DNA of 53,493 nucleotides from an uncultured Bacilli bacterium (GTDB lineage Bacteria > Bacillota_I > Bacilli_A > RF39 > UBA660). The position numbers and the translations under genes are program-made. The first letter of the stretch is position 1. The number at the start of each line of letters is the position of its first letter. This document shows positions 6,201-27,790 of the stretch, piece by piece. Under the pieces are notes generated by a model. The model searched no databases, was not told the DNA's origin, and was given only the letters and a program-made list of their open reading frames with translations. The stretch is taken from positions 1-53,493 of the forward strand of contig CALVIS010000003.1 in NCBI GenBank assembly GCA_944331805.1, in the 5' to 3' direction.

Positions 6201-7316
6201 GTTTATTAAAGAAGTTATCTCACTCATCTTCTGTTTCAAATTATCAATTACTTCTTCTTCTTTAACAAGTCTTTCTTTAAGTATCTCTAACTCATTATCA
6301 AGTTCTACTTTTCTTTTACTTTTTTCTTCTAAATCAGTATTGTTTAAATGTTCTTTCTCCTCTTTAGCAGTATTAAATTCATCTAATAGTACTACATCTT
6401 CTTCTTTTAGTCTAGCAATCTCTTCTTCTAAACTAGTAATAGCATTAGTTTTCTCAGTAATTTTAACCTTTATATTTTCAAGAGCTTGGTACTCTTTATA
6501 ATAATTAGTCGCTTTAGCAAGTAATACTGCTTCATTATAATTTTTAAAGACTTTAGTAAAGTTAGAAAGAATATCAATGTTATTTTTTAACTCATTAATC
6601 TTTTCTTTAGTAGCATTTAAATTTTCAATAGTATCAGATAAAGGCCTTAAAGTCTCATCTGATAAAGGTGGTAAAACTTCATTTAATACTTCCATTAATT
6701 TAGTAGGCTTATACTCTTTAGATAATTTTGGACTCCTAATTTGTAAGATAATATTGATAAATTCATCAAAAGTTTCTATATTTCTAAATTTAAATAAATT
6801 ATCATTAACTAACTTTTTATATTCTTTAGCAGTTTCTACTAAATTATTAGAAACACCTAAAGCACTTCTTAACTCTAATTTAGTTAAAGGCGTCTTAGTA
6901 AAACCATCTTTTGTTTTATATAAGAAGAAATCTTTTCCTACTCTTCTACCATCTTTTAAGATAAAACCAAAGAAGTCAGTAGGCTTACCCCTTCTCGCTC
7001 TAAGTCCCATACCAATAGTAATATATCTATCTTCTAAATTATTATAAAACTCCATATATAAATAACCAGTAGAATCATCTTTTTCATTATTTTCTCCAAG
7101 TAAATAATATTCTATATGTTTGTCAGTAGAACCAAAAGTATCTAATCTTTTAGGAGATTTATTACCATCTAATATTAAGGGAATAAATGATTGCATAGTA
7201 ACAGACTTTCCTGATCCATTTTGTCCTCTAAGTAAAAGTTTACCATCATAAAAATTAAATACTTCATCATCATATAACCAAAAGTTTATAAGTCCCATTC
7301 TTGTAGGTTTAAACAT
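3279..7316 (-). CDS. jetC: Wadjet JetC SMC-like ATPase (TIGR02680 family)
   Basis: Walker A GQNGSGKS, long coiled coil, signature FSGGE, Walker B IALDEAF; start moved to ATG 7316 behind GGAGGTG. Confidence 0.9.
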   Translation of the reverse strand: MFKPTRMGLINFWLYDDEVFNFYDGKLLLRGQNGSGKSVTMQSFIPLILDGNKSPKRLDTFGSTDKHIEYYLLGENNEKDDSTGYLYMEFYNNLEDRYITIGMGLRARRGKPTDFFGFILKDGRRVGKDFFLYKTKDGFTKTPLTKLELRSALGVSNNLVETAKEYKKLVNDNLFKFRNIETFDEFINIILQIRSPKLSKEYKPTKLMEVLNEVLPPLSDETLRPLSDTIENLNATKEKINELKNNIDILSNFTKVFKNYNEAVLLAKATNYYKEYQALENIKVKITEKTNAITSLEEEIARLKEEDVVLLDEFNTAKEEKEHLNNTDLEEKSKRKVELDNELEILKERLVKEEEVIDNLKQKMSEITSLINDNEDDITNLDKEITNLITNLSDLGDEISFDELKDLIPFIKEKTQVSYIIEKINFKKEEIEKTKELLIRKGNLLETQNIKSNEYEKLKTDYLEKEKIRDGFYQELDNELELFFISLNNIRTNNKFLILLSDDMKEIASYLDEYSSEGYLKSKEKYEEIYKIKYSKLLEEVSFKKTELLTEKDKLSKEELLLKELLEMEEIKLEEDDLTRKTIDYLDKENIPYAALYQVVEFKEGIDDDTKNKLEEVLYSSGILNTKIFRDEDLRKIENMNISYFKKSSKKKDNLTKYLKAYPNEVFSNEFITSILESISTSDSDVISINENNYNFDFIKGNIKGDYNSKYIGVLKRKEEHQLLIKEEKEKINAIKEVIRNKELELDTLDTSINTLNNESKLFPSNRILEEITAKIKETDLELDFINNKEKELEEEIRKYQQQIEEVIKELEKYRSNIPLNLVTYDKASVVIRDILDTTKELNALYDKLNQKKELLMTNKERLDDLTTNHDEVYATISSLVNDKKKREIELNTILKILNTKEYLELSKKIEKIVKTIEDYPFKSANLSKRLGVLEQSFKGEEEQLKSLEEQKKEEEIFLEILSNILKEELDLGYVVKDLEVDFKTIKNFLRNNDAKTKDLKDVTMNYYRSFNEYRQELLEYNIQDVVLFNERDNLINHYSDKVSDRTRVINIYNDAKRQDVLTSYQGKKLNIYELSNALLESYEADKIYLNEQDRHLFEDILLRTIGTKIKEKIIEARDWVKKINNIMEIKQQNSNLSFYLDWKPKSGEALDEMDTKDLVEIFMMPSNFIKPEDTNRLIKHFRSKIKREEESMLTNNITYFQMIFNILDYRNWFTFKLFYKKDGNQKRELTDKIFSVFSGGEKAKTMYVPLFASIYAKLDSAAPSSPRLIALDEAFAGVDEVNIEEMFAILASFDLDYILTSQALWCDYKEIKDISICELIKPLTADTVSIKRYRWNGLVRESVE

Positions 7317-8487
7317 CTTCTTCACCTCCAAATAAATCCATCTGTTTTGTATTATCTTTTATAAGTTTAGCATTAAATCTAGCGATAGTTGGTAATACTA
7401 AATAAGTATTATCCTCTTCTTTTAAGAAAGAATACTCTATCATATAATTTACTACTTCATCAAAGAATTTCTGTAAAGATAAATTAAGATACTGTTTACT
7501 TAAATACTCTTTATTATTAGTCTTAATGTCTTTAATAATCATTTCTAAACTTTCTTTTTTTATTCGTCCTATCTCTTTATCATCAAGAGATATTTCTTTA
7601 TTTTTAATCATTTCATAAAGTTTAGTATTTATCATTAAAACTATATCTGTAATTTTCTTATTATTAGGAAAATTATCTTTAGAATTACTTGTTTCATATT
7701 CATAAAGAAAAGCCATATTCTTTGTAACTTCAATTTCGAAGTTTAAATTAGAAAACTCATTTTCTAAATAACCACGCATCTTCTTAATATAATCAATTTC
7801 TGCTTCTGTTAAGTTATAAGAAAAAACAGCAGGAGTAAATAAAAGATTACGATAAACTTTATATCTTCTAACATCACCTTTTTCTAAAGTTTGATATTTC
7901 CATTCATCATTTAAAAAATCATTAGTATCTTCTATTTCAAAAATATCGTTTGTAAATAATCGCATTACATAGTTAGCAAGACCTGTTACTTCATATAAAG
8001 CTTCAGCATTTTGATCATCTTTAAAGCTTATCTTTTCAGCATCTTTAACCTTTATTACTGATATTTCTGTTAAGAAATCTATTACTCTAACTAAACTTTG
8101 TCTATCACTTCTTAAATTCCAATCTGGTATTGTCTCAAGATTTAAGGTAACCGCGGTATTTTTAACATAATCTATTAGTGATGATAAAACAAAGACTTCA
8201 CCTCTAGTTTTATCTTCTAAAAATAATAGAATTATACACAAAATGACATAGTCTTGTTTTGAATTAAAGTTATCTATTCCTAGATTATCAACTCTACTAC
8301 TAGGAATCTTTTCAAGTTTAACAAATCTATCATGAATAATTAATTTACTACCAAGAGTCTTAGTAACAAAGTCTTTAATAATATTTTGTTTTCTTTTAAC
8401 GTCATAGTATAAGTCAGGATTATCTTCTTTTAAAATCCAAAAGTTAGTTAAAAGTTCTCTTATTTCATTTTCAATTGATTCCATCAT
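7309..8487 (-). CDS. jetB: Wadjet JetB (TIGR02678 / DUF2398 family)
   Basis: Size and position between the jetA-like and SMC genes, overlapping both; LEKIP and RYKVYRNLLFTPAV segments typical of the family; start at 8487 or 8484 after GAAGGGGG. Confidence 0.8.
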   Translation of the reverse strand: MMESIENEIRELLTNFWILKEDNPDLYYDVKRKQNIIKDFVTKTLGSKLIIHDRFVKLEKIPSSRVDNLGIDNFNSKQDYVILCIILLFLEDKTRGEVFVLSSLIDYVKNTAVTLNLETIPDWNLRSDRQSLVRVIDFLTEISVIKVKDAEKISFKDDQNAEALYEVTGLANYVMRLFTNDIFEIEDTNDFLNDEWKYQTLEKGDVRRYKVYRNLLFTPAVFSYNLTEAEIDYIKKMRGYLENEFSNLNFEIEVTKNMAFLYEYETSNSKDNFPNNKKITDIVLMINTKLYEMIKNKEISLDDKEIGRIKKESLEMIIKDIKTNNKEYLSKQYLNLSLQKFFDEVVNYMIEYSFLKEEDNTYLVLPTIARFNAKLIKDNTKQMDLFGGEEDV

Positions 8488-9955
8488 AACCCCCTTCAAA
8501 AATAATACTTAAACTAGGTAAAGTAAATATTCCATCATCACTAATAATTCTACAAGTAGTATTACTATCATTAAAGTTAACTTTATAGTTAAGTCCAAAT
8601 AAAGGTTCTTTAAAATAATTAGTACTATTTCCTGCTTTACTTATTAGATTTAAAAGATATCCTCTTTCTTCTTTAGTTAATCTAACTTCATCTTTTAACT
8701 CTACTACTTTAGTTTGAACGAACTTCTTTAACATTTCTTTTTTTCTAGTTTCTTCTTTCTCATATAACTCTAATATTTCTTTTTTCTTACTAGTTTTATC
8801 TACTATAGTACTATGACGTTTTTCTGCTCTAATTTTTTTATCATTAGGTAATACTGATATTATTGTTGGCTTTACTTCATAAGAATTAACTAAAGAATCA
8901 GTATCTTTTTTACTAATACCTTTAAAGTGTTTAACTCTATAAATTCCAAAGACAGCATTAGATAAATCTCTTACTTCAGTTAGATTAGTTTTTTTATCAA
9001 AAAGTTTACAAATATACTTATACTCTTCTTTACGTTTTATCATATTACCATGAAGTTCTATAAGACTACTAGCACATTTAGTAATTCTACTGATAAGATT
9101 ACTAGTAACTTCTAAAAGTCTATCACCTTCACTCTTTTCTTTAGTATTAACAAACCATTTATAAATACTTCTCCATTTACCCAAATTAACTTGATTAAAT
9201 TTCTGATAATTAAAGTCTAAAGCTATTTTAGGAATACCTCTTTCTGCTTCTTCTAATCTTTTAATAAGATTATCTTGAAAGTTATTATCCATACTCTTTA
9301 AAATTTCTCTTATATCTTCAGCTTGATTTAAGTACCCTGTTATAAAATCTTTTAAGTACTGAATCATTTTATTTTTATATTCTAGAAAGACTGTACTTTG
9401 TAAAAGTTCTTCAGTTTTTGACTCTTGAAACTTCTTTAAAAAGTCTTGATAGTTTCTATTAATATCACTAAATTCATTAGTAATTCTCTCCCAAGTATCA
9501 AGTAATTCTTCGTTAGATAGAGAATCTAATTTTTTTATCTTTTTTAATAAGTCTCTTAATACTTCAAATCTTTTAGGAGATAAAGATGCAACCTTTACTT
9601 CCATTTCTTCAAGTTCAATAGTCATACGTTCTATAGCGATAGCATAATCTGTTAATTGATATCTATATTTTTTATATTTAAAGTCGGCAAGCGAGTTAAT
9701 ATTATTAACATCTTGAACAGTAGTTAAACTTAAATTATCTACTAAAAACTCTAAATCTCGTTCTAGATCTTCCATAGTATAGTTATCTATTTTATCCTTT
9801 AATTCATCATAGATATCTTCTTTAAAAAGCCAATTCTCTGCTTCTTCATATTTATGATAAAAAAAACGCATAATAGGTCTATAACGATAAGTATTTTCTT
9901 GTGATAAATATTTAGTCTCCGTAATAGCTTTTTGTAGTACTTCAAAATTATCCAT
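8471..9955 (-). CDS. jetA: Wadjet JetA kleisin-like subunit (TIGR02677 / DUF2397 family)
   Basis: N-terminal YLSQENTYRYRPIMRFF and YRYQLTDYAIAIER segments; first gene of the operon; ATG 9955 preceded by AAAGGAGA. Confidence 0.8.
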   Translation of the reverse strand: MDNFEVLQKAITETKYLSQENTYRYRPIMRFFYHKYEEAENWLFKEDIYDELKDKIDNYTMEDLERDLEFLVDNLSLTTVQDVNNINSLADFKYKKYRYQLTDYAIAIERMTIELEEMEVKVASLSPKRFEVLRDLLKKIKKLDSLSNEELLDTWERITNEFSDINRNYQDFLKKFQESKTEELLQSTVFLEYKNKMIQYLKDFITGYLNQAEDIREILKSMDNNFQDNLIKRLEEAERGIPKIALDFNYQKFNQVNLGKWRSIYKWFVNTKEKSEGDRLLEVTSNLISRITKCASSLIELHGNMIKRKEEYKYICKLFDKKTNLTEVRDLSNAVFGIYRVKHFKGISKKDTDSLVNSYEVKPTIISVLPNDKKIRAEKRHSTIVDKTSKKKEILELYEKEETRKKEMLKKFVQTKVVELKDEVRLTKEERGYLLNLISKAGNSTNYFKEPLFGLNYKVNFNDSNTTCRIISDDGIFTLPSLSIIFEGGYDGIN

Positions 9956-10036
9956 ATACTTCTCCTTTATGGCTATTATTCTATCATATGTTCTAGTTAA
10001 TGTATAGTTATTTTTTTGCATTTTCCAAATGTTACC

Positions 10037-10071
10037 AAAAAAGAAAGAAATCTATCAAAGATAGACTTCTT
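10037..10071 (-). terminator. Rho-independent terminator upstream of jetA
   Basis: Minus-strand hairpin AAGAAGTCTATC-TTT-GATAGATTTCTT followed by a T-rich tail. Confidence 0.6.
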
Positions 10072-10266
10072 AAAGTAATTATTATTGCTATAATACTTGT
10101 GATAATTCATCTTGTATAGCATGTTTATTACATAATTGAACACTTAAGTCTAAAATCAGCTCTTTATAAGATTACTGACTATTATTCATATCTTCCTTTT
10201 TTATAGCATTAAAAATATTATTATACATTTTTTCTATTCTTTATTATTATATTTACTGATATTGTC

Positions 10267-10296
10267 AAAAAAATTACTCTAGAAAGTAATTTTTTT
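10267..10296 (-). terminator. Terminator-like hairpin downstream of gmrSD
   Basis: AAAAAAATTACT-CTAGAA-AGTAATTTTTTT inverted repeat with A/T tracts on both sides. Confidence 0.55.
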
Positions 10297-10415
10297 GGTT
10301 TTTTCTTAATTTATTACTGCAGTACCTTCTTATATATTTTAAAGTTTATTATTTTTAATTAAAACAGTTTCTATTAAGACGTCTAAAGTATTACTCGCAT
10401 CGTTATTATTAATTA

Positions 10416-12254
10416 TTATAATTCAAACTCTTTCATAAAAAAATCTACTAATCTATTTGTTCTTTCCTTTATGTCTTCGATATGCCAAGCATCTTTACTC
10501 ACTACATCGTCATTCAATTTTAATCCATTTTTATAGCCAATATAATTACCATCTTTATTAACTCTATTCTTTTTCTTTTCAAAAGACAAATTACTTAAGT
10601 TTTGGTTATATCCTGTTATAGTTAAATTTCCTAAAGTATGTACATAATTATTTAAATATTCAATTGCTAAATTTTTATCACCATTTGCTATCATATTAAT
10701 CCACTCTGTGGGAATATTTTCTCCTTCAGGGAAAATATGTTCTATTGTCCAAATATATTTATTACTATTATCTCTACTCCACAAATTAGTATATATTTCA
10801 TTTGTTTTAAATTTATCTTCATAATAACATAGTAAAAATCTTGTAGCATCTGGATTATCTAAATATATTGATCCTTTTAATTTTGCTTCAAATATTTCAT
10901 TAGATGATGAATTAGCTTTTAAATTATTGATAATCAAATCATATATTTCAGTACCTTGTTTATCTTTAATTAGTGCTACTAAATCCATAAATATCTTTGT
11001 TAGATTTCTTGTATTTGGATAATCTGTAATATTCCTTCTAACAAAAAACTTTGTTAAATAGTTAATAATATTTGCAATAATTTCATTATTTAAATTTAAT
11101 TCTTCTTTTTTTGACATCAAATATAAAAGTAAAATATATGCAGGTGCTCCTTGAATTTTATCTAAATTAAATAATGGCTGTGCTAATTCTTCAATAACAT
11201 CATCTTCACTTGCATTGTTAATTAGAATTGAATAATTTCTAGCTTCTTTTTCAACTCTATTTAAAAATTTTTCATAATCTGTTTTAATTAATTTTTCATA
11301 GATATCTAGTATTGTACTTTTTGTAGCTAGATAACCTAATGCATATTTTACTTTTCCTTCTGCTTTATATGGCTCGTTTAATTCATCCCTATAAGCATTA
11401 TAAAATTGTCTAAAAAATCTTTCTTGTACGCTATAATCTTCTCCTAAATAGGAAAGTATTTTTTTCCATTTAGAATAGCATTCATCTGATTTACCATCAT
11501 CATCTGACACACTAATTAATAAATTTTTTATTAAATCAATAGCAGATAAAGGAACTCCTCTATTATTCAAAGATTCAAATAGCATATAAGCATCTTTATG
11601 AGTTTCTACCTGAATAGAGACTAAGATAGCAGAATTAAATTTGTTTACTAACTCAAATAAAATATCTATTTCATTTAAATCTGAATCTTCTTTTTGAATT
11701 TCTTCTACATATTTATCAATTAAATTAGAAAAGTAATAATAGGCTCTATATATTCTTCTATTACCAGCATTATTCTTTTTTTCATAGTCTAAAAGCAAAT
11801 CATTTTCACATAGTAAACTAAAATAATCATCTCTATTATTATTTTGAACTTGTGGTTTTAATCTTGAAATATTTTTTCCATTTCTTTTAACAACTAATTC
11901 CCTTTTAATATTATTTAAATCTGTAAGTCCATCTTCATCTAATTGACTCTTCTTTTTATTTAATTTATTGTATAGAGCTATTAATAAAATAGAAATAGAT
12001 GTTAACCTTTGTTGTCCATCAATAACTTCTAATATAGCGTCGCTCCAAGCACTGACACTATCATCTACACAAATAATAGAACCTAAAAAATACCCTTTAT
12101 CATTTTCAATTACATCATTAAATAATAGATTCCATTCTTTTTGTCCCCATGTATATTCTCTTTGATATTTTGGTATGTTATATAAAATGCTTTTTTCATT
12201 AGAAAATATTTGAGCTATATTATTTGGCTCTGTATATTTAATCATTACACTCAC
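10416..12254 (-). CDS. gmrSD: GmrSD-like type IV modification-dependent restriction endonuclease (DUF262 + DUF1524/HNH)
   Basis: DUF262 motifs IPKYQREYTW, IDGQQRLT, FESLNNRG; C-terminal TIEHIFP...LGNLT...N HNH-like motif; true start may be ATG 12245. Confidence 0.9.
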   Translation of the reverse strand: MSVMIKYTEPNNIAQIFSNEKSILYNIPKYQREYTWGQKEWNLLFNDVIENDKGYFLGSIICVDDSVSAWSDAILEVIDGQQRLTSISILLIALYNKLNKKKSQLDEDGLTDLNNIKRELVVKRNGKNISRLKPQVQNNNRDDYFSLLCENDLLLDYEKKNNAGNRRIYRAYYYFSNLIDKYVEEIQKEDSDLNEIDILFELVNKFNSAILVSIQVETHKDAYMLFESLNNRGVPLSAIDLIKNLLISVSDDDGKSDECYSKWKKILSYLGEDYSVQERFFRQFYNAYRDELNEPYKAEGKVKYALGYLATKSTILDIYEKLIKTDYEKFLNRVEKEARNYSILINNASEDDVIEELAQPLFNLDKIQGAPAYILLLYLMSKKEELNLNNEIIANIINYLTKFFVRRNITDYPNTRNLTKIFMDLVALIKDKQGTEIYDLIINNLKANSSSNEIFEAKLKGSIYLDNPDATRFLLCYYEDKFKTNEIYTNLWSRDNSNKYIWTIEHIFPEGENIPTEWINMIANGDKNLAIEYLNNYVHTLGNLTITGYNQNLSNLSFEKKKNRVNKDGNYIGYKNGLKLNDDVVSKDAWHIEDIKERTNRLVDFFMKEFEL

Positions 12255-12451: not shown

Positions 12452-13276
12452 TTAAGATTGTTTTAACAAGGTTTGATAAAAAGTTTGAATTTCTTGCACT
12501 ATTTGTTTAGTACTTCCATTTTCATTGCTATATATTTCCAATAACTTTTTATACATCGTTTCTCCGTAATATTCTACAAATTCTTTTTTTAAATATGTAT
12601 TTAAAAAGTAATTTTTAAACTCTTCATAAATTTCATCTATTAAATTTTCTGTTAAATTATTAAAATTTATATTTTTTAATTTTTGTAATAACCTTTTGTT
12701 CTGTTGATATAATTCAAGATGTTCTTCCTTCTCTTTTTCATTTCGTTTATCTAAATGTAAAATTGTCTTCTGAATCGATATTATAGTTTCAGGATTTTCT
12801 AAAATCATACTTTTAATTTCATCTGATGTTAACTTGTTCAGTTCAAAATCTACAACATTATTACAAATATGAAACAGTAGTATAAATTCTTTTTGTGGAA
12901 TACTTGTATGAAAAATTGTATACTGATCAGCATCATCAATTTTATTTGGATGCTCATATCTATTTCTATAGACAGAATATAATTCATAAATAGTATATGT
13001 GCTATTTAATGATTCTGCATTTAGTGGAATAACCTTTTTATTTAACTCAGATTCTAAATTTTGATATTTATCAAAATATTCTTTTTTATCTTTTATCGCT
13101 CTTATATAATTATATAAGTTGATTTTAAAATAGTTAAGTGTATCCTGAATTTCCAATTGAAAAGTTAGATTTAAAGCTTGTTTACTATATAATTCATCAT
13201 ATCTTTTTAAAGTCCTTTTGGTCCTTTCTCTAGCATTAAGCAAAGTTATCAATGTTTTAATCTTTTTCTGCTTCAT
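12452..13276 (-). CDS. Putative HEPN-domain protein (274 aa)
   Basis: All-helical sequence with RxxxxH motif YRNRYEH; ATGA overlap with the upstream 149-aa gene. Confidence 0.5.
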   Translation of the reverse strand: MKQKKIKTLITLLNARERTKRTLKRYDELYSKQALNLTFQLEIQDTLNYFKINLYNYIRAIKDKKEYFDKYQNLESELNKKVIPLNAESLNSTYTIYELYSVYRNRYEHPNKIDDADQYTIFHTSIPQKEFILLFHICNNVVDFELNKLTSDEIKSMILENPETIISIQKTILHLDKRNEKEKEEHLELYQQNKRLLQKLKNINFNNLTENLIDEIYEEFKNYFLNTYLKKEFVEYYGETMYKKLLEIYSNENGSTKQIVQEIQTFYQTLLKQS

Positions 13277-13722
13277 AGTCCTTCTACCATATTGAAAATT
13301 AATTTTTCGATTTGTACAACAGTATTAACTATTCTTTTGTTAGACAAGAATTTTAAATAATTTTCATATTGATTTTTATATTTAAATTTTATATCCAAGC
13401 CAGTAATATCTAACCAATAAATTCTATTACATGGAAACTCAATAGGAAATTCTATTGGAAAAGTAAAGCCACCATCTTCCACGTTTTTAATACTTAATAT
13501 AGTATTTTCGTGTTTAGTTAAATTAAATGCAAATTGTAATCCTGATAGTAAATCATTATTCATTTTATTATAAAGTCTATATCTACTTAAATTAGCTAGA
13601 AAAGAAATTATTTCTTTTTCTAGTCTTATCCAATCTTCTTTAATATAAATATCCGTGTTTTCTATTTTAGTTAATACTTCTTTTAAATCTTGAATAGCAC
13701 ATAATAAAATTTGCTCATTCAT
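13273..13722 (-). CDS. Hypothetical HEPN-like protein with degenerate motif (149 aa)
   Basis: GLQFAFNLTKH resembles a HEPN RNxxxH motif lacking the Arg; FTFPIEFPIEFP mini-repeat; 6 nt after the brxL stop. Confidence 0.4.
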   Translation of the reverse strand: MNEQILLCAIQDLKEVLTKIENTDIYIKEDWIRLEKEIISFLANLSRYRLYNKMNNDLLSGLQFAFNLTKHENTILSIKNVEDGGFTFPIEFPIEFPCNRIYWLDITGLDIKFKYKNQYENYLKFLSNKRIVNTVVQIEKLIFNMVEGL

Positions 13723-18317: not shown

Positions 18318-19304
18318 TTAACTATTCACCTCCTCTTTTTCTAATTCTTGATATATGTATTCATTCCATTTATTTAAATTATTTGTAAAAGTTTCTTCAT
18401 CTATAAGAGTATCTATTCCAATCTTTTTTAAAATTAACATTCTATATAACATAACAATTTTAAACATAAATAAAGCTGATTCTTTGCCATTCAAAGTATC
18501 TTTTTTAGTGACAGAATGTGAAAATTTGTTTCTTGTATTAACTAATTTACTTAACAAAGAGTCAATATAATATTTGTTGTTATCATCTAAGTCTTCTTCA
18601 TACTTAAATACTTTAAATCTTGTATATTGAATATAAAATCTTAATTTGTCAATAAAATGTAAGTTTGATACTTTTGTCATGTCATCTTTTAATTTTTCAT
18701 AATCAGAAGCTGGTATGTTCATTACATCTATTGTATTAAGATAATCTTTTATTCTATTTAATTTTAAATTTATAATATCATTTCTACAGTCTTTAAATAA
18801 TACTTCAAATAAACCATCTAACGATTGAAGAACATTTACCATAGTAATTTCAGGATATAGATTACTTTTCATTGTTGAAACATTAAATATCGTAACCGGA
18901 AAATTTGCATTTTTATATATTTTTCTATATTCTTTAAAAGAATTAAAAAAAGTTTGATTATCTATTTCTTGTATATATTGTTCACTTGCTCTAATAAAAC
19001 ATTCTTTTGTCTTATATTGTTCTACAATATTTTTCAATTGGTTTTTATCCATAAATGATGCTTCTAAAATTTCTGGAAAATATCCTAATATTATTTCTAA
19101 ATATGAATAAAAGGTCCAAAATATATTTCTCAACTCTTGATCATCCAAAACACTAGAATTTAAATTGATTATAAATCTCTCATATTTATATTCAAACTTT
19201 ATTTCAAAATTATCAAATGCACAACTGGCATTCTTAAATATTTCTGGCATTATTATATTATTACCATTATTCTTTTTTACAACTGTTGATAGTTTTATTT
19301 CCAT
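18318..19304 (-). CDS. ApeA-like HEPN-domain protein inserted in BREX
   Basis: C-terminal LVNTRNKFSH (RxxxxH), preceded by LQSLDGL and followed by MLILKKIGI, an arrangement typical of ApeA-HEPN. Confidence 0.65.
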   Translation of the reverse strand: MEIKLSTVVKKNNGNNIIMPEIFKNASCAFDNFEIKFEYKYERFIINLNSSVLDDQELRNIFWTFYSYLEIILGYFPEILEASFMDKNQLKNIVEQYKTKECFIRASEQYIQEIDNQTFFNSFKEYRKIYKNANFPVTIFNVSTMKSNLYPEITMVNVLQSLDGLFEVLFKDCRNDIINLKLNRIKDYLNTIDVMNIPASDYEKLKDDMTKVSNLHFIDKLRFYIQYTRFKVFKYEEDLDDNNKYYIDSLLSKLVNTRNKFSHSVTKKDTLNGKESALFMFKIVMLYRMLILKKIGIDTLIDEETFTNNLNKWNEYIYQELEKEEVNS

Positions 19305-19312
19305 ATTTATAC

Positions 19313-22300
19313 CTACCTTATTTTTGCAAGTATATCTTTAAACTTTTCGTAATTTACTTTTACTCCGTCATCTAAATCAATACTTATTCTTTGATTTGCA
19401 ATATGTGCTATTTTTTCATCATATTCTTTTATTTCTTGTAGCTTAGAATTTAAGTTAGCTTGTCTTTTTAGTGTATCTTTTTTATCACTCATTGATAATT
19501 CAGTAGTGAGTTTATATTTTATATCATCTAACATTTTTTTATAAGTAGTTTGCATTCTATGTAAATAATCTAATCTGATTTTAGGCACTAAATTCTCATT
19601 ATATCTATGCATATATATTAGTGCTTTAAATCCATTTTTCTTTCCACTATCAAATAACCAATATATAGGTCGTTTTTGATATATTTTAACATGATCATTA
19701 AAGAAGTCATTTACAAAATATCTTCTTATAGTATCTTCACTTGTTTCTGTACCCTTTTGTCCTAATGTTTCTGCAATGAAGTCAAGATTTTCATTTAATG
19801 TTTCTTTTCCATAAGCCACACTTATAAACTCCTTAAATCTCGCAACAATGTCATCTTCAAAATATGATTCATCAGTTATAGGAATAACATTATCATTATC
19901 AACTTCAAAAGACAAATCTATTTCTTTTCCATTATCATTTAAAACTTTATAATTTGCTAGGCTGACACCTGCCCAACCACCATCTTCTTTCTTATATTTT
20001 TTATATATTTCATTAAAATCTCCACCTGCATATATTAGACCTTCCTTATCAAGAGAGTATCTACCAAACATACAGCCAACTGCATAACTAATTAAAGATT
20101 TTATTTCTCTTACTTGATCTGCTTTTCTTATAGTAACATCTTTATCATCTTCTTCTGGTGTTAGCTCATCTTGAAGTCCATATATATCAATGAATATTTT
20201 ATTAAGTTCTTCTTCATTTCTTTTTAAAGTAAAAAATTGCTTTTTAGTAAATTCTTCCCATTTATCATATGAATCTGATATTCTTGCTTTTATTGGCAAT
20301 TCATCTACAATAAAACATTCTTCACCATAATTATTTTTTATTTTTTTTAAATGAGGAATAGGAACTTGTATATTAGAATCATGCAATTCAGGCATTGAAT
20401 TTATAAATTCTAATAGAGGATGTTTTTTAAAGTCCCAACTAGTTTCAAATGAATCCCAATCTTCTTTGGATATGGTTATATTACATTTAACCAATTCATT
20501 AACTGTCGATATAAATTTTTCTTCAAATATAAAAGGTAAATTTAATAAATGGCCTGGTTTTGTATCTCGTGTCCCAGACAAAAACTCTAAATATTTTTTG
20601 GCAACACTAGAATTAAGAAGTGCCAAATAATAGAGTAAATTATCATTGTTATATGCAAAAGCCATTGAACCTTTTGAATCAAATAATGTATTTTTTTCAC
20701 TAATTCTAAAACTTGCACCAATTGAGCTAAATGCTCCCCAAGTTATTCCATCTTTATAAATAAATTCACCATTATAGTTGTGAGATCTTGTTCTTCCAGT
20801 TTTTTCATCTTTAAAACTTTTTATTTCTTTTCCATTATCTTCCCAATTAACAACATATTCTTTATTTCCATACCATTTTCTACAAACTCCACCTTTATTA
20901 TAAGGAAACCACTTCGGATTATTTTTTATATTATTATATATTGCCATTTTCTGATTTTCAATTTCAAACCACATTCTCAAAAATCTGTCATTTTTGCCAG
21001 TTGTCATTCCTTCTCTTGTTATAATAAATTTCCCTAATAACTCTTTAGTAAAATTATTCAACATATTTTTAGATATTGTATAAGCAATAGCTTTATTAGG
21101 TAAAATTTTAAATATTTTCTGATTTATTTGATATCTTTTTGCTTTTAAAAAATTTATTCTTTTGTCTTCTGATGCTTTATACGGAGATAATTCAATAAAT
21201 ATAGAATTAAAATCATTTTTCTTTTCAGAACTAATCACAAAGGCCGTTGTTCCAAAATCAGTTCCAAATGCTCCAACTCCCATATGTGCCATACTTATAA
21301 TAGTATGATTTTCTAACAAATCGTTTCTTATATCATCTAAATCTCCCAAAGTCATCCAAGAATGTGGAGTAATCATAGAATAATATGAATCATCTCTAAT
21401 TAAAAAGATTCCCATTCTTTTAATAAATGCAGTAAACAAATCATTTGAAAAACATTTATAATTCTTATCCAAAAAATTACGTAATTTCATTTCTAACTTT
21501 GCTTTTATGGCATAAGGTGGATTAGTAACAGCAATATTATATTTTTTTGACAATATTTTTGAAACTTTAATAATTGGAAGTAACTTTTCTCTTAATTCAA
21601 TTCCAAAAATTGTAATATCATCATTTATGTTTTTTATAAGTCCTGAATAATTTTTATCTTCTAAAATAAGAAGTGATCCTATTTCTTTTGCATTTTTAAA
21701 ATTATCAATTAAATATTTTGCTTGTTCTTTTAAATTTTCTTCAAAAATATTATCAATGGTAAACTCCGAAATAGTATTGGATTCTTGAATACTCATTATA
21801 TGTAAGTTTCTTATTATATCTTTATTAAAAATATTTCTGTCATACTCTCTTGCTTTTAATAAAACTGATAGAATTGACAATTGACCTGCTCTATCATCTA
21901 TATCTAATCCATATAGATTATTTTTTAATATAAGTTCAGGTATATCATTCTTATTATAACCAGTTTGAAGATATATTTGATAAAATACCTCAAAAGCATA
22001 TGCAAGTATATGACCACTACCACAGCAAGGATCAATAAATGTGATTTCTGTCGGATTTAATTTTTCTTTTTTATTTTCTAAATTTTCTTTTATAAAATAT
22101 TTCCAATTATCTGTTATGGAAGAAGATAGGGATAAACTATTACTTGGATATAAATTATCTGATTGATATAAAGCTCCATCTCCATTGTGTTCTACCCAAT
22201 ATCTTACTAATGAGTTTTCAACCATATATTTTACAATCCAGTCTGGTGTAAATAATTGTGTAGCATAAGGAATCTCATTCTTTTTGTATGCTTTTTTAGC

Positions 22301-22996
22301 AGAAATAACTCTGTCTTTTTCAGCCTGATTATAATATTGATATAACCAACCTATTATTTCTACTTGTTTATAATTATCTTCTGGAACTTCATTTATTACT
22401 TTTGTAACAAAACCTGAATCATTCAATAAGTTATCAGGTATTAATATATCAATATAATCAGTAATACCATCAAACACCTGTGGTATTACCATGCCAAGTT
22501 TTTTACAAACTAATAATAAAACATATTTAAATTTTTCATTATCATCTTTTAATTCGGCATATTTTTCTTTCCTAAAATTAATATCTAAATCTGGATTCAT
22601 TAGATTAGTAAACTTTAATATTTCTGGGTCAGGAGTATTATCTTTTGATGATAATACTCTTATACCTAGACTTTGATTATCTCTTGTTAATGGTAATATA
22701 TCATTGATTTCCATATATCTAATAGCAATTATTCTATTAAACCAAGTATAAGCTGCCTCTTCTATTACTTGATCAAGAGATAACTCTACAATCCTTTTAA
22801 TTAAAAGATTACGCTTTGTGTATTCTTCATATGTTAGACTCAATGAGTGTTTTTCATTAGATAAAATATATAAATCACCTTTTTGTTCTATATTAAAGTC
22901 TTCATTAACATAAAAGGTATTTATTTTATTTTCCATTTTTTCCATTAAATCTTTTCTTGATTCAATAGCAAACTTTTTTAATATAGTTTTATCCAT
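19313..22996 (-). CDS. pglX: BREX-1 adenine DNA methyltransferase PglX (BrxX)
   Basis: MDKTILKKFA start, EEAAYTWFNR, TQLFTPDWIV, motif I DPCCGSGH, motif IV NPPY, DWDSFETSWDF, IDLDDGVKVNY end. Confidence 0.95.
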   Translation of the reverse strand: MDKTILKKFAIESRKDLMEKMENKINTFYVNEDFNIEQKGDLYILSNEKHSLSLTYEEYTKRNLLIKRIVELSLDQVIEEAAYTWFNRIIAIRYMEINDILPLTRDNQSLGIRVLSSKDNTPDPEILKFTNLMNPDLDINFRKEKYAELKDDNEKFKYVLLLVCKKLGMVIPQVFDGITDYIDILIPDNLLNDSGFVTKVINEVPEDNYKQVEIIGWLYQYYNQAEKDRVISAKKAYKKNEIPYATQLFTPDWIVKYMVENSLVRYWVEHNGDGALYQSDNLYPSNSLSLSSSITDNWKYFIKENLENKKEKLNPTEITFIDPCCGSGHILAYAFEVFYQIYLQTGYNKNDIPELILKNNLYGLDIDDRAGQLSILSVLLKAREYDRNIFNKDIIRNLHIMSIQESNTISEFTIDNIFEENLKEQAKYLIDNFKNAKEIGSLLILEDKNYSGLIKNINDDITIFGIELREKLLPIIKVSKILSKKYNIAVTNPPYAIKAKLEMKLRNFLDKNYKCFSNDLFTAFIKRMGIFLIRDDSYYSMITPHSWMTLGDLDDIRNDLLENHTIISMAHMGVGAFGTDFGTTAFVISSEKKNDFNSIFIELSPYKASEDKRINFLKAKRYQINQKIFKILPNKAIAYTISKNMLNNFTKELLGKFIITREGMTTGKNDRFLRMWFEIENQKMAIYNNIKNNPKWFPYNKGGVCRKWYGNKEYVVNWEDNGKEIKSFKDEKTGRTRSHNYNGEFIYKDGITWGAFSSIGASFRISEKNTLFDSKGSMAFAYNNDNLLYYLALLNSSVAKKYLEFLSGTRDTKPGHLLNLPFIFEEKFISTVNELVKCNITISKEDWDSFETSWDFKKHPLLEFINSMPELHDSNIQVPIPHLKKIKNNYGEECFIVDELPIKARISDSYDKWEEFTKKQFFTLKRNEEELNKIFIDIYGLQDELTPEEDDKDVTIRKADQVREIKSLISYAVGCMFGRYSLDKEGLIYAGGDFNEIYKKYKKEDGGWAGVSLANYKVLNDNGKEIDLSFEVDNDNVIPITDESYFEDDIVARFKEFISVAYGKETLNENLDFIAETLGQKGTETSEDTIRRYFVNDFFNDHVKIYQKRPIYWLFDSGKKNGFKALIYMHRYNENLVPKIRLDYLHRMQTTYKKMLDDIKYKLTTELSMSDKKDTLKRQANLNSKLQEIKEYDEKIAHIANQRISIDLDDGVKVNYEKFKDILAKIR

Positions 22997-23008: not shown

Positions 23009-23809
23009 TTATTTTAACAAACTTTGAACAAAAGTTATTAATTCTTTAATTGAAACTGCTAACTCTGCTAATGTTCCAAGCTTAGGTAATACTTCTTGAA
23101 GCGAAGAAATAAAAGCTTTAACTCTTCCTTTTTTAATATCTTTTTTCTTTAATTCTTCCTGTATTCCTTCTGCATTATCAATAATTTCTTGTTTTAGTTC
23201 TTCATCTTCAATATTATCAACCTTTTGTTTAACGTTAGATACCAATCTGTCTAATTCATTATAATTGTTTTGTATAGCGGTAATATTTGCATTTTCTCGC
23301 GCAAGGTTAAGTTGTCCACCATTATTTATTATTACAAATTTTGTTTCTTCATCCATTCCCATTTCTATAAATATCCTTTCATAATTAACATTAATATAAT
23401 TTATAAGAGGCTCTACTACATTATCACAAAAACTTTTTAATTTATCTTGAAATTTGCTAGAAGAAGAATAAGATTTTATATATGCTCTACAATCTATATT
23501 ATTATCAATGATGTATTTTAAAATTTGATAAATATATGCTACTTCTTTTTCTTCCTCTATATAATCTTCAAAAATACAGTCATACTTTGTACATACCTCT
23601 TTAACGTCATCTTCTATTTTAAGTTCATTATACTTGCAAATACAAGAATCTATATATTGCTTTATTACTTCATTGTTATCGATAAAAATAATTAATCTTT
23701 TAAGGTTACCATTAAATACCTGAAAATCACTTGTAAGTGTTCTGCTTGCTATTGTTCTAAATTCTATACTTTCTTTTTTCAATTCTTTTTTATTTATTGG
23801 TTTACTCAA
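23009..23809 (-). CDS. Hypothetical helical protein (~266 aa) inserted in BREX
   Basis: TTG start at 23809 behind GGAGGTG overlapping the upstream stop; helical N-domain, NNGGQLNLA linker, helical C-domain. Confidence 0.7.
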   Translation of the reverse strand: MSKPINKKELKKESIEFRTIASRTLTSDFQVFNGNLKRLIIFIDNNEVIKQYIDSCICKYNELKIEDDVKEVCTKYDCIFEDYIEEEKEVAYIYQILKYIIDNNIDCRAYIKSYSSSSKFQDKLKSFCDNVVEPLINYINVNYERIFIEMGMDEETKFVIINNGGQLNLARENANITAIQNNYNELDRLVSNVKQKVDNIEDEELKQEIIDNAEGIQEELKKKDIKKGRVKAFISSLQEVLPKLGTLAELAVSIKELITFVQSLLK

Positions 23810-24251
23810 AATTAGCACCTCCACATAAAGGACAATAACTTCCTGTAACAATAGATCCAGTTTTTATTTTTGCCATAGTTTTACAACAATCATATTTCAT
23901 TATCTGCATATTTTCTATTCTTGGTTTTATTATACTAACAACTTCCATTTCTGGTTTCTTTCCGACCTTAAAGTTGATAAATTTATTATTTTTTGTTTTT
24001 CTTTCTAATTCTTTTAATGAATTAAACATCATTCTATTTGCTTCATTTTTAGCCATTTTCATACTCATATCCAAAACTTCTTTTGTATAATATTCTTTAC
24101 CATTTAATCCACAATAGGGGCACCATATATTTAATGTTGATTCATCATTTAAATCACTCGCAAGTAATTTAAAAAATTCCCCACAAAGACTACATTGCAA
24201 TAATATAAATCCATCTTTATCACTTTTTATCGATATTTCAAATGTACTCAT
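23802..24251 (-). CDS. Multi-zinc-ribbon protein (TFIIB-type Zn ribbon-like) inserted in BREX
   Basis: CSLC, CPYC, CC and CPLC cysteine clusters; AGGAG RBS right after the brxC stop. Confidence 0.75.
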   Translation of the reverse strand: MSTFEISIKSDKDGFILLQCSLCGEFFKLLASDLNDESTLNIWCPYCGLNGKEYYTKEVLDMSMKMAKNEANRMMFNSLKELERKTKNNKFINFKVGKKPEMEVVSIIKPRIENMQIMKYDCCKTMAKIKTGSIVTGSYCPLCGGANFE

Positions 24252-24262
24252 AACGTTTTCTC

Positions 24263-27200
24263 CTATCTAATAGTTAAACTACTATTCTTTTCAAACTCTT
24301 TTAATAATTTCTCTTTTAGTTCTTCTACATATTTATCAATATCTTCTTTTGAATTAATCTCATAAGAATGATTCATTAAACTATCAGCTCTTATTATTGT
24401 TCTTTTAACTATTTTTTCTTCTACAACTTCTCCTGTTTCATCTATTGCATTTTTCTTACTCTTTTCATATTCTAAATCATTAATAAACTTATCCTCAAGT
24501 TGATTTATTCTCGTTTGTTGAGCAAATATATCTTTCAATTCATTAGATCTTTCTAATGTATCAATAACTTTTTTACAAGTATCAATATATGGCTTAGCAA
24601 AATCTATATCTATTCCTGCATTTTTTACTTCATTCTCTATATATTCAATAGTACCATTTATCTTTTTTATAATAGGCTCTGATTTAACATCATACATATT
24701 ATTTAATATATCTATTAAATCTTTTCTTAATGTTGGTAATTCATGTATTTCACTATATGGCTCTTTTGAAGTAAGAATTGCAACCATTCTATTTACAACA
24801 TTTAAAAGTTCATCAGTTTTATCAGCATAGTCTTTATTATTATCATAAATAGTAATTATCTTCTTTGCTTCATCAAATTGCTCTTTTTGTGCTCCATCAA
24901 AGAATTCTAATACCATTTCTATTTTAGGTGCTAAAGCAATAAGATCTTCTTTACAATTTGACACCTCTTTAAAGAATTCTCCAACATCCCTTATTTTTAA
25001 TAATCTTTCCATTATATTAGTCGCTTCATCTTTTACCTCTTGTCCTGGATACTGATAATTACTACTAGAACTATAATAATATCCAGCTATTCTATTTAAC
25101 TTATTTAAAGTATTTTGAAGACAATTGTTTTTAAAATCCTCAACCATGCCATCTTCATCATCTCTTAAATTCATAACATCAAAAGCACTTCTTGCAACTG
25201 ATTTTAGATCATTTATTAGACTTATATCAATTTTTTGTCTAATTTTAATTATAGTCCTATCATAATATTCTCTTTTTAAAATCTTTGTTAATGTATCTTC
25301 TGAAGTTATATTTTGCACTTCGTTATTATAAATTAAAGATACTACCTCATCTTTTAATAATCTTGTTAACAAATATAATATATCTTCATCTAAAAATCCA
25401 TAAGGTGCAGTACTAAAATCTTGTAATAAAGTTCTTATTGTTATTGGCATACCAAAGGCATTTTTTTCTTCACAATATTCTTTCATTGCATCATAAGCCT
25501 TTTGGTTAACAAATTCTACTTCATTGCCAAGCAAATTCTGCCTATTCTCATGAAATAAATCTTTAATATCTTGTGTACTAAAGTTATGTTTTATATATGA
25601 GAACTTTGTATATATATTATTAACCAATATTTCTAAAGCTTCATTAACTCTTGCCTTAGCTTCTTTAGCATTTATATTTTGTCTATCCCCTGCAATAATA
25701 ATTTCTGCTTCATTTATTTCTTCTTTAATATATTCTTTTATTCTTCCTTTTGTATGATCTGTTTCTCTTTCTTTTGCTCTAATAATATCTACAATTTGTT
25801 GTGTTTGAAGTATTCTACTATTAATTCTTCTAAATTCTTCCACCTGTAAGCAATTTGTTATCTCATCATAGATTAAAGAAGAAATTTCAAGTTTTATAAA
25901 GACATATTTGTTTTCTCTAAAAGACTGCATCAAAATTTCAGTATCACTTTTTCCTGAAAAATTAGTAATAACTTTTATACCAATTTCATACTCTTGTGTA
26001 TATTTAATGGTATCTATGTATTCTGTAAGTGAAAAAATTCTTTTTTTATAAGATAATTTATTATCTACTAATATTTGACTAAAAATTAATTTTCCTAGAT
26101 AATCCGCAACTCTATTTGGTTCAATGGATATTTGTTTTATTTCTCTATTTATCTCTTGTTCTTCATCTGTCAAGAATTTATATTCATCATTATTTCTTTG
26201 AATTAGATTTTGTGATTCTAGCCTTCTTAATGAATCTGAAATGTTCTTTTTTATTGTTATTTTATCATCATTAATATTTGATACATATAACGTTGATAAG
26301 TTATCAACATTAGCAGGTATATCCTTGATGTTTTTAAGCATAAATAACATTTTCAATACTTTAATATCTATATCTTTTAGTTCTCCACTTTTTACCATAT
26401 CAAGAGCATTATTTATTACATTTTTAATCTGATGCTCCAAAAACTGTTCAATGGTATCATAGAAAGCATAAAAAGGAATAAGAGTTCCAACTTCACTATC
26501 TCCAAACCTTTGTGCAGTTTCTTGGAACGCACCTAATAATGATCTTTCACCGCTTGATAAATGCTTCCCTGCATATCCATGCTTTCTAATATCATTAAAC
26601 ACATCCTGTAATAATTTAAATTGATATGGTATAAATGGGTATATTTCTGCAAAATCATCACTATCTTCATATACTTTTTGATAAGTAGCATTTTTAAAAG
26701 TTAATAAATTTCTTATTATAGACTCTTCTTTATCATAAATCATTTTTAAACTTACTTTCGCTTCATCTGTTTTATCAAGTATTCTTTTCTTGATTACTTC
26801 ATCTATATCAGAACTTGATAAAGAAAGCTTTGTATCAAATCTACCTTGTATTTTAGAAAAATCATTACCTTGAACTTTTACAACATCATCTATCGCTTCT
26901 TGTGATGTAACAATTACCCATGCTTTTCCACCACATTCTAATCCTAAATCTTCAACTATTGTTTGGAGATTTAACATTAATCCTCTATCATCTCCGATAT
27001 ATTGTCCAATTTCATCAACTAAGAACACTACATGATGATTATTACCTTTAGATTTAATGTAATCTCTAACTCTTTCTGCATATTTTTCTACTGATAATGT
27101 ATAATTTTTTTCTGTTCTTTCTACTACATTACGAGCTTCTTCTACTGATTTACCAAAAACTTCAGCATAAGAATTAGCAAATTCATCTTCTACAAATTGA

Positions 27201-27790
27201 ATTCCATCTCTCATTTCTTCCCAAGAAGCATTAGCATTATGTTGAAAAGCCTTTTTAAAATCATCATACTTTCCTTGACTAATCATATATCTTTCTATTT
27301 CTGCAACAAAAGGTGTAATAGAAAATCCCATTTTTTCATTGAATACTTTTTCAAATACCTCTAATATCTTGTCTTTAGTTCCATTACTGTTTTCTGTTTT
27401 TGAATCAATATTAAATAATATTACATCTGTTGATATACTGCCCGCTCTTTTGATATCAGCAAGTAACATCTTATCATCTATCTTATCATCAAAATAATCA
27501 ACTGCTGCTTTACCATTAACAATTTTATTTTCTAATAAATAAGATATTATTTTTAAAAAATGAGACTTACCACTACCAAAGAAACCAGAAATCCAAACTC
27601 CCATCTTCTCTGTATTACCATTTATTCCTGCATTATAAGCCTCAAAAAAACTATGAAAGTGCTTTAACAATTCATCTGTTACAACATACTCTTCAAGCTC
27701 TTGACTAATATAACTTTCATCGTCTACTTTAATTACCCCTTGTATTTCTCTTTCAATATCTTTAGCATATATTTTTTTTAAATTATCCAT
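24263..27790 (-). CDS. brxC: BREX P-loop ATPase BrxC
   Basis: GVIKVD, ELEEYVVT, Walker A GFFGSGKSH, Walker B LVDEIGQY, KIQGRF, YPFIPYQ. Confidence 0.95.
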   Translation of the reverse strand: MDNLKKIYAKDIEREIQGVIKVDDESYISQELEEYVVTDELLKHFHSFFEAYNAGINGNTEKMGVWISGFFGSGKSHFLKIISYLLENKIVNGKAAVDYFDDKIDDKMLLADIKRAGSISTDVILFNIDSKTENSNGTKDKILEVFEKVFNEKMGFSITPFVAEIERYMISQGKYDDFKKAFQHNANASWEEMRDGIQFVEDEFANSYAEVFGKSVEEARNVVERTEKNYTLSVEKYAERVRDYIKSKGNNHHVVFLVDEIGQYIGDDRGLMLNLQTIVEDLGLECGGKAWVIVTSQEAIDDVVKVQGNDFSKIQGRFDTKLSLSSSDIDEVIKKRILDKTDEAKVSLKMIYDKEESIIRNLLTFKNATYQKVYEDSDDFAEIYPFIPYQFKLLQDVFNDIRKHGYAGKHLSSGERSLLGAFQETAQRFGDSEVGTLIPFYAFYDTIEQFLEHQIKNVINNALDMVKSGELKDIDIKVLKMLFMLKNIKDIPANVDNLSTLYVSNINDDKITIKKNISDSLRRLESQNLIQRNNDEYKFLTDEEQEINREIKQISIEPNRVADYLGKLIFSQILVDNKLSYKKRIFSLTEYIDTIKYTQEYEIGIKVITNFSGKSDTEILMQSFRENKYVFIKLEISSLIYDEITNCLQVEEFRRINSRILQTQQIVDIIRAKERETDHTKGRIKEYIKEEINEAEIIIAGDRQNINAKEAKARVNEALEILVNNIYTKFSYIKHNFSTQDIKDLFHENRQNLLGNEVEFVNQKAYDAMKEYCEEKNAFGMPITIRTLLQDFSTAPYGFLDEDILYLLTRLLKDEVVSLIYNNEVQNITSEDTLTKILKREYYDRTIIKIRQKIDISLINDLKSVARSAFDVMNLRDDEDGMVEDFKNNCLQNTLNKLNRIAGYYYSSSSNYQYPGQEVKDEATNIMERLLKIRDVGEFFKEVSNCKEDLIALAPKIEMVLEFFDGAQKEQFDEAKKIITIYDNNKDYADKTDELLNVVNRMVAILTSKEPYSEIHELPTLRKDLIDILNNMYDVKSEPIIKKINGTIEYIENEVKNAGIDIDFAKPYIDTCKKVIDTLERSNELKDIFAQQTRINQLEDKFINDLEYEKSKKNAIDETGEVVEEKIVKRTIIRADSLMNHSYEINSKEDIDKYVEELKEKLLKEFEKNSSLTIR

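Follow-up and report, generated by a model that had tools for sequence, protein, structure and literature searches.

A PDC-M14 gene pair nested in a BREX operon: two predicted binding partners with a probable defence-type role

A stretch of 53,493 nucleotides from an uncultured Bacilli bacterium (contig CALVIS010000003.1; hereafter, the window) carries two small genes, A and B, embedded in a bacteriophage exclusion (BREX) operon between brxC and pglX. We consider it likely, with a probability of about 0.8, that their products form a complex of two proteins whose role is defence-type and does not depend on BREX. This reading as a defence-type pair is a plausible one, strengthened by the linkage of the two genes, their natural fusions, their genomic context and the prediction of a complex between the two proteins. 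Judged by its profile matches, the pair is a member of PDC-M14, a widespread family.

The initial annotation, made from the DNA letters alone, had matched the pair to no system that it recognised and put it forward as a candidate novel sensor–effector defence pair. Both proteins match PDC-M14 in the PADLOC collection, and for this reason the system does not count as unrecognised. Protein A matches the PDC-M14A profile PDLC04447 (E = 9.8e-50, 166.9 bits) over positions 2–149 of 152, about its full length, and protein B matches the PDC-M14B profile PDLC04449 (E = 2.4e-63, positions 5–264 of 267) together with five more PDC-M14B profiles. Adjacent genes on the same strand, in the same two-gene order, complete the resemblance; no feature sets the window pair apart from the family. 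The initial interpretation is partly supported: the linkage of the pair holds, and its novelty does not. At E ≤ 0.1 in PADLOC, A and B match PDC-M14 profiles only, with no homology to BrxA, BrxB, BrxC, PglX, PglZ or BrxL, in agreement with the earlier statement that neither is a core BREX gene.

The phage defence candidates (PDC) comprise 145 candidates, some of one gene and others of several, that Payne et al. obtained by a guilt-by-embedding screen, and they are described as untested in the passages of that preprint cited here (10.1101/2024.01.29.577857). PDC-M14 is taken here as a candidate defence family in the same sense. The embedding of the window pair in BREX corresponds to the route by which, according to the same passages, the PDC candidates were found (10.1101/2024.01.29.577857). 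New in the present analysis are the linkage of the pair, the A–B fusions, the complex prediction, a relative that bears a TIR domain, the negative fold and family searches and the loci outside BREX.

A BREX set consisting of brxA, brxB, brxC, pglX, pglZ and brxL, assigned with Pfam and PADLOC, surrounds the pair (Table 1). The two open reading frames (ORFs) of the initial annotation, both on the minus strand, were borne out by translation, as were the overlap of 8 nucleotides (nt) between the TTG start of B and the TAA stop of A, and the length of 266 amino acids (aa) for B. The longest frame of B opens at 23851. The TTG at 23809..23807 has a GGAGG 8 nt upstream, and relatives of B share the residue at which it starts, for example P0003, which begins MSKPINKK in the alignment of database relatives. 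The stop of brxC and the start of A are separated by 11 nt, the stop of B and the start of pglX by 12 nt.

The 8-nt overlap is identical in the window and in ten further loci (L001–L010), and the GGAGG lies within the Cys-Gly-Gly codons of A in 11 of 12 close copies, the window counted. Since the GGAGG is formed by these codons, a single DNA stretch serves at once a zinc site of A and the start of translation of B; at 23818..23826, and at the same site in L001–L010 and L013, the ribosome-binding site of B is the codons of the conserved Cys-Gly-Gly of A. No terminator-like site was found between brxA and brxL on the strand of the pair. A promoter scan gave 148 sites against 159.6 expected and is uninformative because the DNA is AT-rich. 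The G+C content of the pair (0.25–0.26) equals that of its flanks (0.25–0.26). The computational results show that one message gives rise to both A and B, via coupled translation.

Table 1. Positions of the pair, its coupling signal, its flanking genes and its protein regions in the window
Feature	Position	Strand	Description
Gene A (P0001, PDC-M14A)	23802..24251	minus	149 aa; predicted double zinc-ribbon ORF
Gene B (P0002, PDC-M14B)	23009..23809	minus	266 aa; TTG start
brxC, upstream flank	24263..27790	minus	Pfam BrxC domains; PADLOC BrxC, E = 0
pglX, downstream flank	19313..22996	minus	Pfam Eco57I/MmeI methylase domains; PADLOC PglX, E = 0
Coupling signal	23802..23822	minus	GGAGG 23818..23822; TTG of B 23807..23809; TAA of A 23802..23804
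A, first Cys4 knuckle pair (predicted)	24111..24194	minus	C20-x2-C23...C44-P-Y-C47-G-L; C20, C23, C44, P45, C47, G48 and L49 invariant
A, second Cys4 site (predicted)	23823..23888	minus	C122-C123...C140-P-L-C143-G-G; C122, C123, C140, P141 and C143 invariant
B, N-terminal helical domain	23345..23809	minus	Residues 1–155; helices 7–150 in the AlphaFold2 model; predicted docking site for A
B, Asn/Gly/Gln-rich beta-hairpin motif	23264..23338	minus	Residues 158–182; strands 158–163/166–171 in the AlphaFold2 model
B, core of the hairpin motif	23270..23320		GGQLNLARENANITAIQ
B, C-terminal four-helix region	23012..23263	minus	Residues 183–266; helices 183–197, 203–220, 227–244 and 248–265

Both A and B are real genes and not chance ORFs, given their many database relatives. 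For A, 52 of 56 candidates were accepted at E ≤ 0.001, and for B 61 of 1,364. A profile built from 27 sequences of B matches 985 cluster representatives at E ≤ 0.001, of which 466 remain at ≤ 1e-10 and 161 at ≤ 1e-30. One scan of species-representative genomes provided 17 loci (L001–L017), so that the window, these 17 and four inspected plasmid loci make 22 in all. The hosts of the 17 are metagenome-assembled genomes (MAGs) of Bacilli, Clostridia, Erysipelotrichaceae, 'Tenericutes' and one 'Cyanobacteria', together with Alkalihalobacillus alcalophilus.

Co-occurrence, a check that the initial annotation had proposed, speaks for the pair. In 15 of the 17 genome loci the gene directly upstream of B is a homologue of A (14 by ORF picking and L013 by a six-frame check). 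By tblastn, B was found on 30 plasmid records, 28 of the Bacillus cereus group, one of Clostridium estertheticum and one of Lysinibacillus, and A precedes B in all four plasmid loci inspected, with a gap of 0–1 nt even at about 25–30% identity of B. The same type of search found no match to B in phage genomes. Moreover, six of the best 150 among the 985 representatives are A–B fusions, in which a full-length A (profile positions 1–146, E from 2e-56 to 4e-26) is followed by B. Computation shows that A and B are passed on together, either as two linked genes or fused in a single chain. In the loci inspected, the pair has no further conserved gene beside it.

The four cysteine pairs reported initially in the 149-aa protein A lie at residues 20/23, 44/47, 122/123 and 140/143. 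All eight cysteines are invariant in 23 aligned relatives, in the motifs C-x2-C, C-P-Y-C-G-L, C-C and Y-C-P-x-C-G, and in the fused relative P0242 a CxxC replaces the CC of the second site. The invariant cysteines and this C-x2-C variant support the presence of two predicted Cys4 zinc sites in A. No Pfam, NCBIfam or PHROG family matches A above cut-off, and a Pfam scan of its 23 relatives returned weak generic zinc-ribbon matches only, Zn_ribbon_8 appearing weakly in 8 of the 23. The best AlphaFold2 (AF2) model of A has a predicted local distance difference test score (pLDDT) of 80.4, the remaining four 64.9–67.6, and the best Foldseek match to the PDB has an E of 1.1, with none at E ≤ 0.001. 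The isoelectric point (pI) of A is 8.6 and the median of its family 7.4, values that give no strong hint of nucleic-acid binding.

Complex prediction for A with B, also proposed initially, gave a score of 0.70 (three runs: 0.70, 0.72 and 0.30), and the best of three controls scored 0.00. Among solved complexes 116 of 157 attain the mark used to read this score, and among mismatched pairs 2 of 215, counts that apply only roughly here because custom alignments were used. The runs share at least 95% of contacts, and the pLDDT of the partner is at least 76. On the side of A the predicted interface comprises residues 22–23, 43, 47–52, 137 and 143–149, which include both zinc knuckles, and on the side of B helix 1 (11–26) and the long helix (129–152) of the N-domain. 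Thus, A is predicted to dock both its zinc knuckles on helices 1 and 7 of the N-domain of B. In the model the C-terminus of A touches residues 11–15 of B, which is the geometry needed by the fusions. Of the 16 interface residues of A, nine are invariant or nearly so, compared with 46 of 149 in the whole protein; for B the corresponding figures are 4 of 20 and 59 of 266, with no enrichment. No comparable solved complex was found by sequence and fold searches. These predictions support binding between A and B.

The AF2 model of B (pLDDT 86.1, predicted template modelling score 0.62) agrees with the architecture read initially from its sequence, namely a helical N-domain, an Asn/Gly/Gln-rich linker and a C-terminal helical bundle. 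The linker, VIINNGGQLNLARENANITAIQNN, occupies residues 159–182 and is modelled as a hairpin, followed by a low-confidence stretch at 174–181 (pLDDT below 50). The hairpin region is rich in Asn, Gln, Gly and Val and poor in Lys, Leu, Pro and Glu; relative to the whole of B it holds 19.5% versus 8.1% Asn, 2.0% versus 7.5% Lys and 2.0% versus 8.5% Leu. Conservation was read from 104 diverse relatives with a mean identity of 29%. Among polar positions, conservation is highest at Q166 (90%), G151 (83%), E89 (81%) and N168 (81%), followed by D153 (80%), R23 (76%) and E219 (75%), and A178 is kept in 82%. No polar motif of the family is better conserved than the hairpin, as would fit a key role. At family position 225 a Pro is found in 92% of the relatives, and the B of the window has Ile.

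In the C-terminal region of B a P-K-K loop is conserved and the last helix is moderately hydrophobic, and the protein as a whole is acidic (pI 5.0). The Kyte–Doolittle average over 19 residues peaks at 1.37, at residues 247–265, and attains 1.6 or more in just 9 of the 104 relatives; with values this low, the last helix is not a classical membrane span. Above cut-off B matches no Pfam, NCBIfam or PHROG family, and the Pfam scan of the 104 relatives returned 25 families with one member each. No catalytic domain was found in B by Pfam, including that scan, by Foldseek or by profile searches of PDB sequences; the latter gave no match with either A or B. The best Foldseek E for B is 0.44 against the PDB and 0.064 against BFVD, with none at E ≤ 0.001. 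The structural searches suggested initially thus ended without a fold match, and it was the complex prediction that yielded a positive result.

As to how such a pair would work, we favour, at slightly under even odds, an autonomous module of the abortive-infection or toxin–antitoxin type in which A is a clamp or sensor and B an assembling, non-enzymatic effector. The PDC-M14 pair would ride in the BREX operon and defend the cell there as a second line, independently of BREX. A would clamp B and hold it inactive, in a regulatory or sensing role; a phage cue would alter or remove A; and the freed B would self-assemble through its Asn/Gly/Gln beta-hairpin. The C-terminal helical bundle of B would then act as a non-enzymatic effector, halting the infected cell at its membrane or at an essential host complex. 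The layout of type II and type IV toxin–antitoxin systems is found here in the small, translationally coupled upstream gene, in the predicted complex and in the natural fusions. A sharper version of this scheme, which we rate as quite improbable, makes B a non-enzymatic executioner controlled by an internal switch for polymerisation, amyloid-like or beta-solenoid-like in kind. The hairpin, with the pattern GGQ-V-N-I-A...N-A-x-Q-N-N, would be folded and inert as long as A clamps the neighbouring N-domain, and the loss or remodelling of A on infection would free it to template assembly and unleash the C-terminal bundle. Phage defence in unicellular Bacillota would then include a form of amyloid signalling that needs one protein only, with neither the paired motif nor the NLR-like sensor of the cases known so far.

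Several points weigh against the defence reading. PDC-M14 belongs to a set whose own description is that of candidates, and by name it occurs in no paper of the literature searched in full text; the main text of the preprint of Payne et al., in the parts found, makes no mention of it (10.1101/2024.01.29.577857). The lowest of the three complex runs and the ordinary conservation of the interface of B count in the same direction, as does the lack of any membrane-span-like segment in B in the 19-residue Kyte–Doolittle scan. The neighbour count given below has its own limits, 5 of the 18 chromosomal loci and the plasmid loci are without clear defence neighbours, and some copies of the pair adjoin relaxase or conjugation genes. 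Finally, the roles of A and B could be reversed, as a TIR domain occupies the position of A in one relative.

This relative came from a profile search of a larger protein set, which returned 90 proteins, among which P0289 (378 aa) alone carries Pfam domains. Its residues 9–146 match TIR_2/SEFIR and are followed, at 193–373, by the N-domain and hairpin of B (hhalign probability 99.1); the sequence as recorded stops five residues past the motif, without the C-terminal bundle. The TIR domain stands in the N-terminal position that A holds in the six fusions. P0289 suggests that N-domain and hairpin are the constant core of the family, and that this core is tied to a domain typical of immune effectors. 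Under the favoured scheme, the TIR domain would assume the killing role in P0289 on the same core, and under its polymerisation version the same assembly would turn on a TIR NADase. A second replacement is seen in L011 (9478-9969) and L012 (9467-9958), where a Cys-free 163-aa gene takes the place of A and B is kept. With an hhalign probability of 0.3 the 163-aa gene is unrelated to A, and no Pfam family matches it; the B homologues of the two loci are 42–43% identical to the B of the window, and a gene for an HSP90-like ATPase follows B in both.

Such a layout, in which the core is constant and its partners can be exchanged, can be read in the opposite sense, with the N-domain and hairpin of B as sensor and assembly scaffold and the protein in the position of A as the effector, A itself being a stoichiometric inhibitor of a host machine for which TIR or the 163-aa protein could substitute. 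We regard this reversal as unlikely. It draws on the fact that a known type of effector, TIR, fills exactly the N-terminal slot of A and that B is retained beside the unrelated 163-aa gene; against this, A has no enzymatic domain and only generic zinc-ribbon similarity, and its best-conserved residues face B and not an external target. Besides, P0289 lacks the C-terminal bundle of B as well, so that its TIR domain may equally stand in for the bundle.

The surroundings of the pair bear on the defence role itself. In 13 of the 18 chromosomal or MAG loci a restriction–modification (RM), BREX or other PADLOC family lies within five ORFs, a raw count that has no background rate and in which several neighbours are themselves only candidates (PDC-S families). 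Most of the loci outside BREX are likewise beside RM or other defence genes, as would be expected from the initial annotation, again as a count with no background rate. The pair stands directly upstream of a type IIG RM gene in L002 and L003, with PDC-S06 or, in L003, a retron-type reverse transcriptase nearby, and it follows type I RM genes in L014, L016 and L017, the last of which also has an Aga-type restriction endonuclease, PDC-S59 and Avs3a. In L005 it is flanked by PDC-S02 and a Stk2-like kinase, in L008 PDC-S01 is two genes off, in L012 it comes after two methyltransferases and an HNH gene, with AbiEii nearby, and L013 has PDC-M04A-like and PDC-S22 genes. No convincing defence neighbour was seen in L007, L009, L010, L011 and L015, where dehydrogenases, a relaxase and a transposase-like gene are found. 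The neighbours on plasmids are an integrase (L018), an 'Abi family protein' about 1.6 kb off (L019) and conjugation-type genes (L020). In L008 and L009 (both 10835-12118) a relaxase gene of the MobA/VirD2 type adjoins the pair and runs on the other strand, which suggests that the pair is carried there on an integrated mobilisable element.

A module for addiction to, or maintenance of, plasmids and other mobile elements, with no specific anti-phage role and with BREX and RM loci merely tolerating its insertion, would account for part of this picture, and we give it a low probability, similar to that of reversed roles. Consistent with it are the 30 plasmid records, 28 of which are megaplasmids of the B. 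cereus group, the integrase, relaxase (L008 and L009) and conjugation-type neighbours, the small upstream gene with coupled translation, which is a typical toxin–antitoxin layout, and the automatic names of Atlas clusters ('conjugal transfer protein'). Insertion that is merely tolerated fits poorly with the same orientation and 11–12-nt gaps of the pair in the BREX operon, free of terminator-like sites from brxA to brxL, and with the recurrence of its position between brxC and pglX in L004 and L006. The majority of chromosomal copies adjoin RM or other defence genes, and the TIR-bearing relative points towards immunity. The addiction and defence readings also overlap, many toxin–antitoxin modules being abortive-infection systems.

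With regard to BREX, its genes are near the pair in 4 of the 22 loci (the window, L001, L004 and L006) and absent nearby in 18, so that regular co-occurrence with type I BREX is not seen. The window shares the order brxC, A, B, pglX with L004 and L006; L001 likewise has brxC upstream, but its contig stops once B is complete. That the pair is an accessory or regulator working only via BREX, for instance by tuning BrxC or PglX, is very improbable with only 4 of 22 loci in BREX: its place after brxC in these four loci and its G+C content, equal to that of the flanks, would suit such a role, but elsewhere it adjoins type I, type II and type IIG RM systems or stands alone on plasmids, and it goes unmentioned in the passages found of a survey from 2026 that covers BREX components and auxiliaries (PMC12839542).

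The favoured reading, a defence-type pair independent of BREX, was also compared with described systems. One of them is AbiT, formed by AbiTi and AbiTii, a two-gene abortive-infection system in which a small gene lies upstream and the downstream protein has no enzymatic domain. In the sources cited, as far as their relevant passages go, AbiTii is an N-terminal module of alpha+beta type, about 180 aa long, that has a conserved Glu and in relatives is fused to HEPN or other effector domains (PMC3710099), and it forms part of the two-gene lactococcal AbiT, whose AbiTi is endoribonuclease-like (PMC13064643). Residues 1–182 of B consist of helices and a hairpin, with E89 conserved at 81%, and the module is joined to TIR in P0289. 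In a language-model Atlas the nearest clusters to B are unnamed ones of its own kind (0.96), and the nearest named ones are AbiTii, at 0.88 for the whole protein and at 0.76–0.79 for residues 1–182, for which the ten best named clusters are all AbiTii; by the own rating of the tool, scores of 0.76–0.88 are leads only. The AbiTii family PF18864 has no match in B at E ≤ 0.1 and none in its 104 relatives at E ≤ 0.01, and A is a predicted double zinc ribbon, unlike the endoribonuclease-like AbiTi (PMC13064643, in the passage cited). The resemblance to AbiT in layout is real; as judged from sequence profiles, membership failed the PF18864 test.

A further candidate for comparison, the likely 'c2405' AbiTii–HEPN gene of Escherichia coli CFT073, was tried and set aside: it has HHH_3 only, without PF18864, and an hhalign probability of 1.4 against the profile of B. 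Its plasmid relatives cover mainly the middle part, and none is annotated as AbiTii.

Amyloid signalling offers a second comparison. The motif of B, about 25 residues long, beta-prone, rich in Asn, Gln, Gly and Val and poor in Lys, Pro and Leu, is like the BASS motifs as they are characterised in the passages cited (10.1101/2020.01.06.895854); in both cases the motif lies beside a small helical bundle, and P0289 carries TIR with a C-terminal motif. Amyloid signalling operates in phage defence in the Bab/Agp system of E. coli, according to the cited part of its description (10.1101/2024.11.07.622273). The defining feature of these systems, a motif shared by two adjacent gene products, is absent here. 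A six-frame search with the motif pattern gave one match, in B only, in 17 of 21 loci and in the window, the pattern having missed the motif in four loci, and the translation of A contains no B-like Asn/Gln/Gly motif. Paired-motif amyloid signalling was rejected because the pattern, where it matched, did so once and within B only. In addition, the motif, which AF2 sets as a hairpin inside a folded protein, is internal in B, and the pair has no NLR-like or Agp-like partner.

BREX operons are also known to harbour other embedded systems, and for BrxU/GmrSD and PARIS the cited passages propose a second layer that acts once BREX is evaded (10.1101/2024.01.29.577857). Their proteins are unrelated to A and B, and the GmrSD-like gene of the window lies elsewhere, at 10416..12254. 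The window illustrates the carriage of nested second-line systems by BREX operons; its own operon has two, the A–B pair and an ApeA-like HEPN gene. If PDC-M14 does protect against phages, defence would come from two proteins without a recognisable enzyme or known fold, which points to a mechanism of binding and assembly and not of catalysis. The in-silico anatomy, with the docking of the zinc knuckles, the fusions, the TIR variant and the hairpin, gives concrete mutants and constructs for a family known from a catalogue only.

Other genes of the island were noted in the course of the analysis, all on the minus strand. The interval between pglX and pglZ encodes, at 18318..19304, a 328-aa protein with a borderline Pfam match to HEPN_Apea (E = 2.1e-05; 25.4 bits, where the cut-off is 24.4). 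This HEPN_Apea-like gene is missing from L004, a BREX locus closely related to that of the window, in which pglZ comes directly after pglX. Right after brxL, at 12452..13722, lies another pair of genes, which overlap by 4 nt and encode 149 aa (13273..13722) and 274 aa (12452..13276). The sizes are near those of A and B and the sequences unrelated; neither protein has a Pfam or PADLOC family, and the 149-aa protein matches phrog_30856 at 1e-06. Downstream of BREX the GmrSD-like gene (PADLOC Orf5/HEC-06) is followed by a complete type II Wadjet system, JetA2, JetB2, JetC2 and JetD2, at 2049..10021, so that the defence island extends beyond BREX over 2049..12254. Just upstream of brxA, a Fic-domain gene at 29107..29943 matches the PADLOC candidate PDC-S72 (E = 5.1e-77); it is kept in L001 (3874-4704) and split into ORFs of 141 and 107 aa in L004 (1349-2176).

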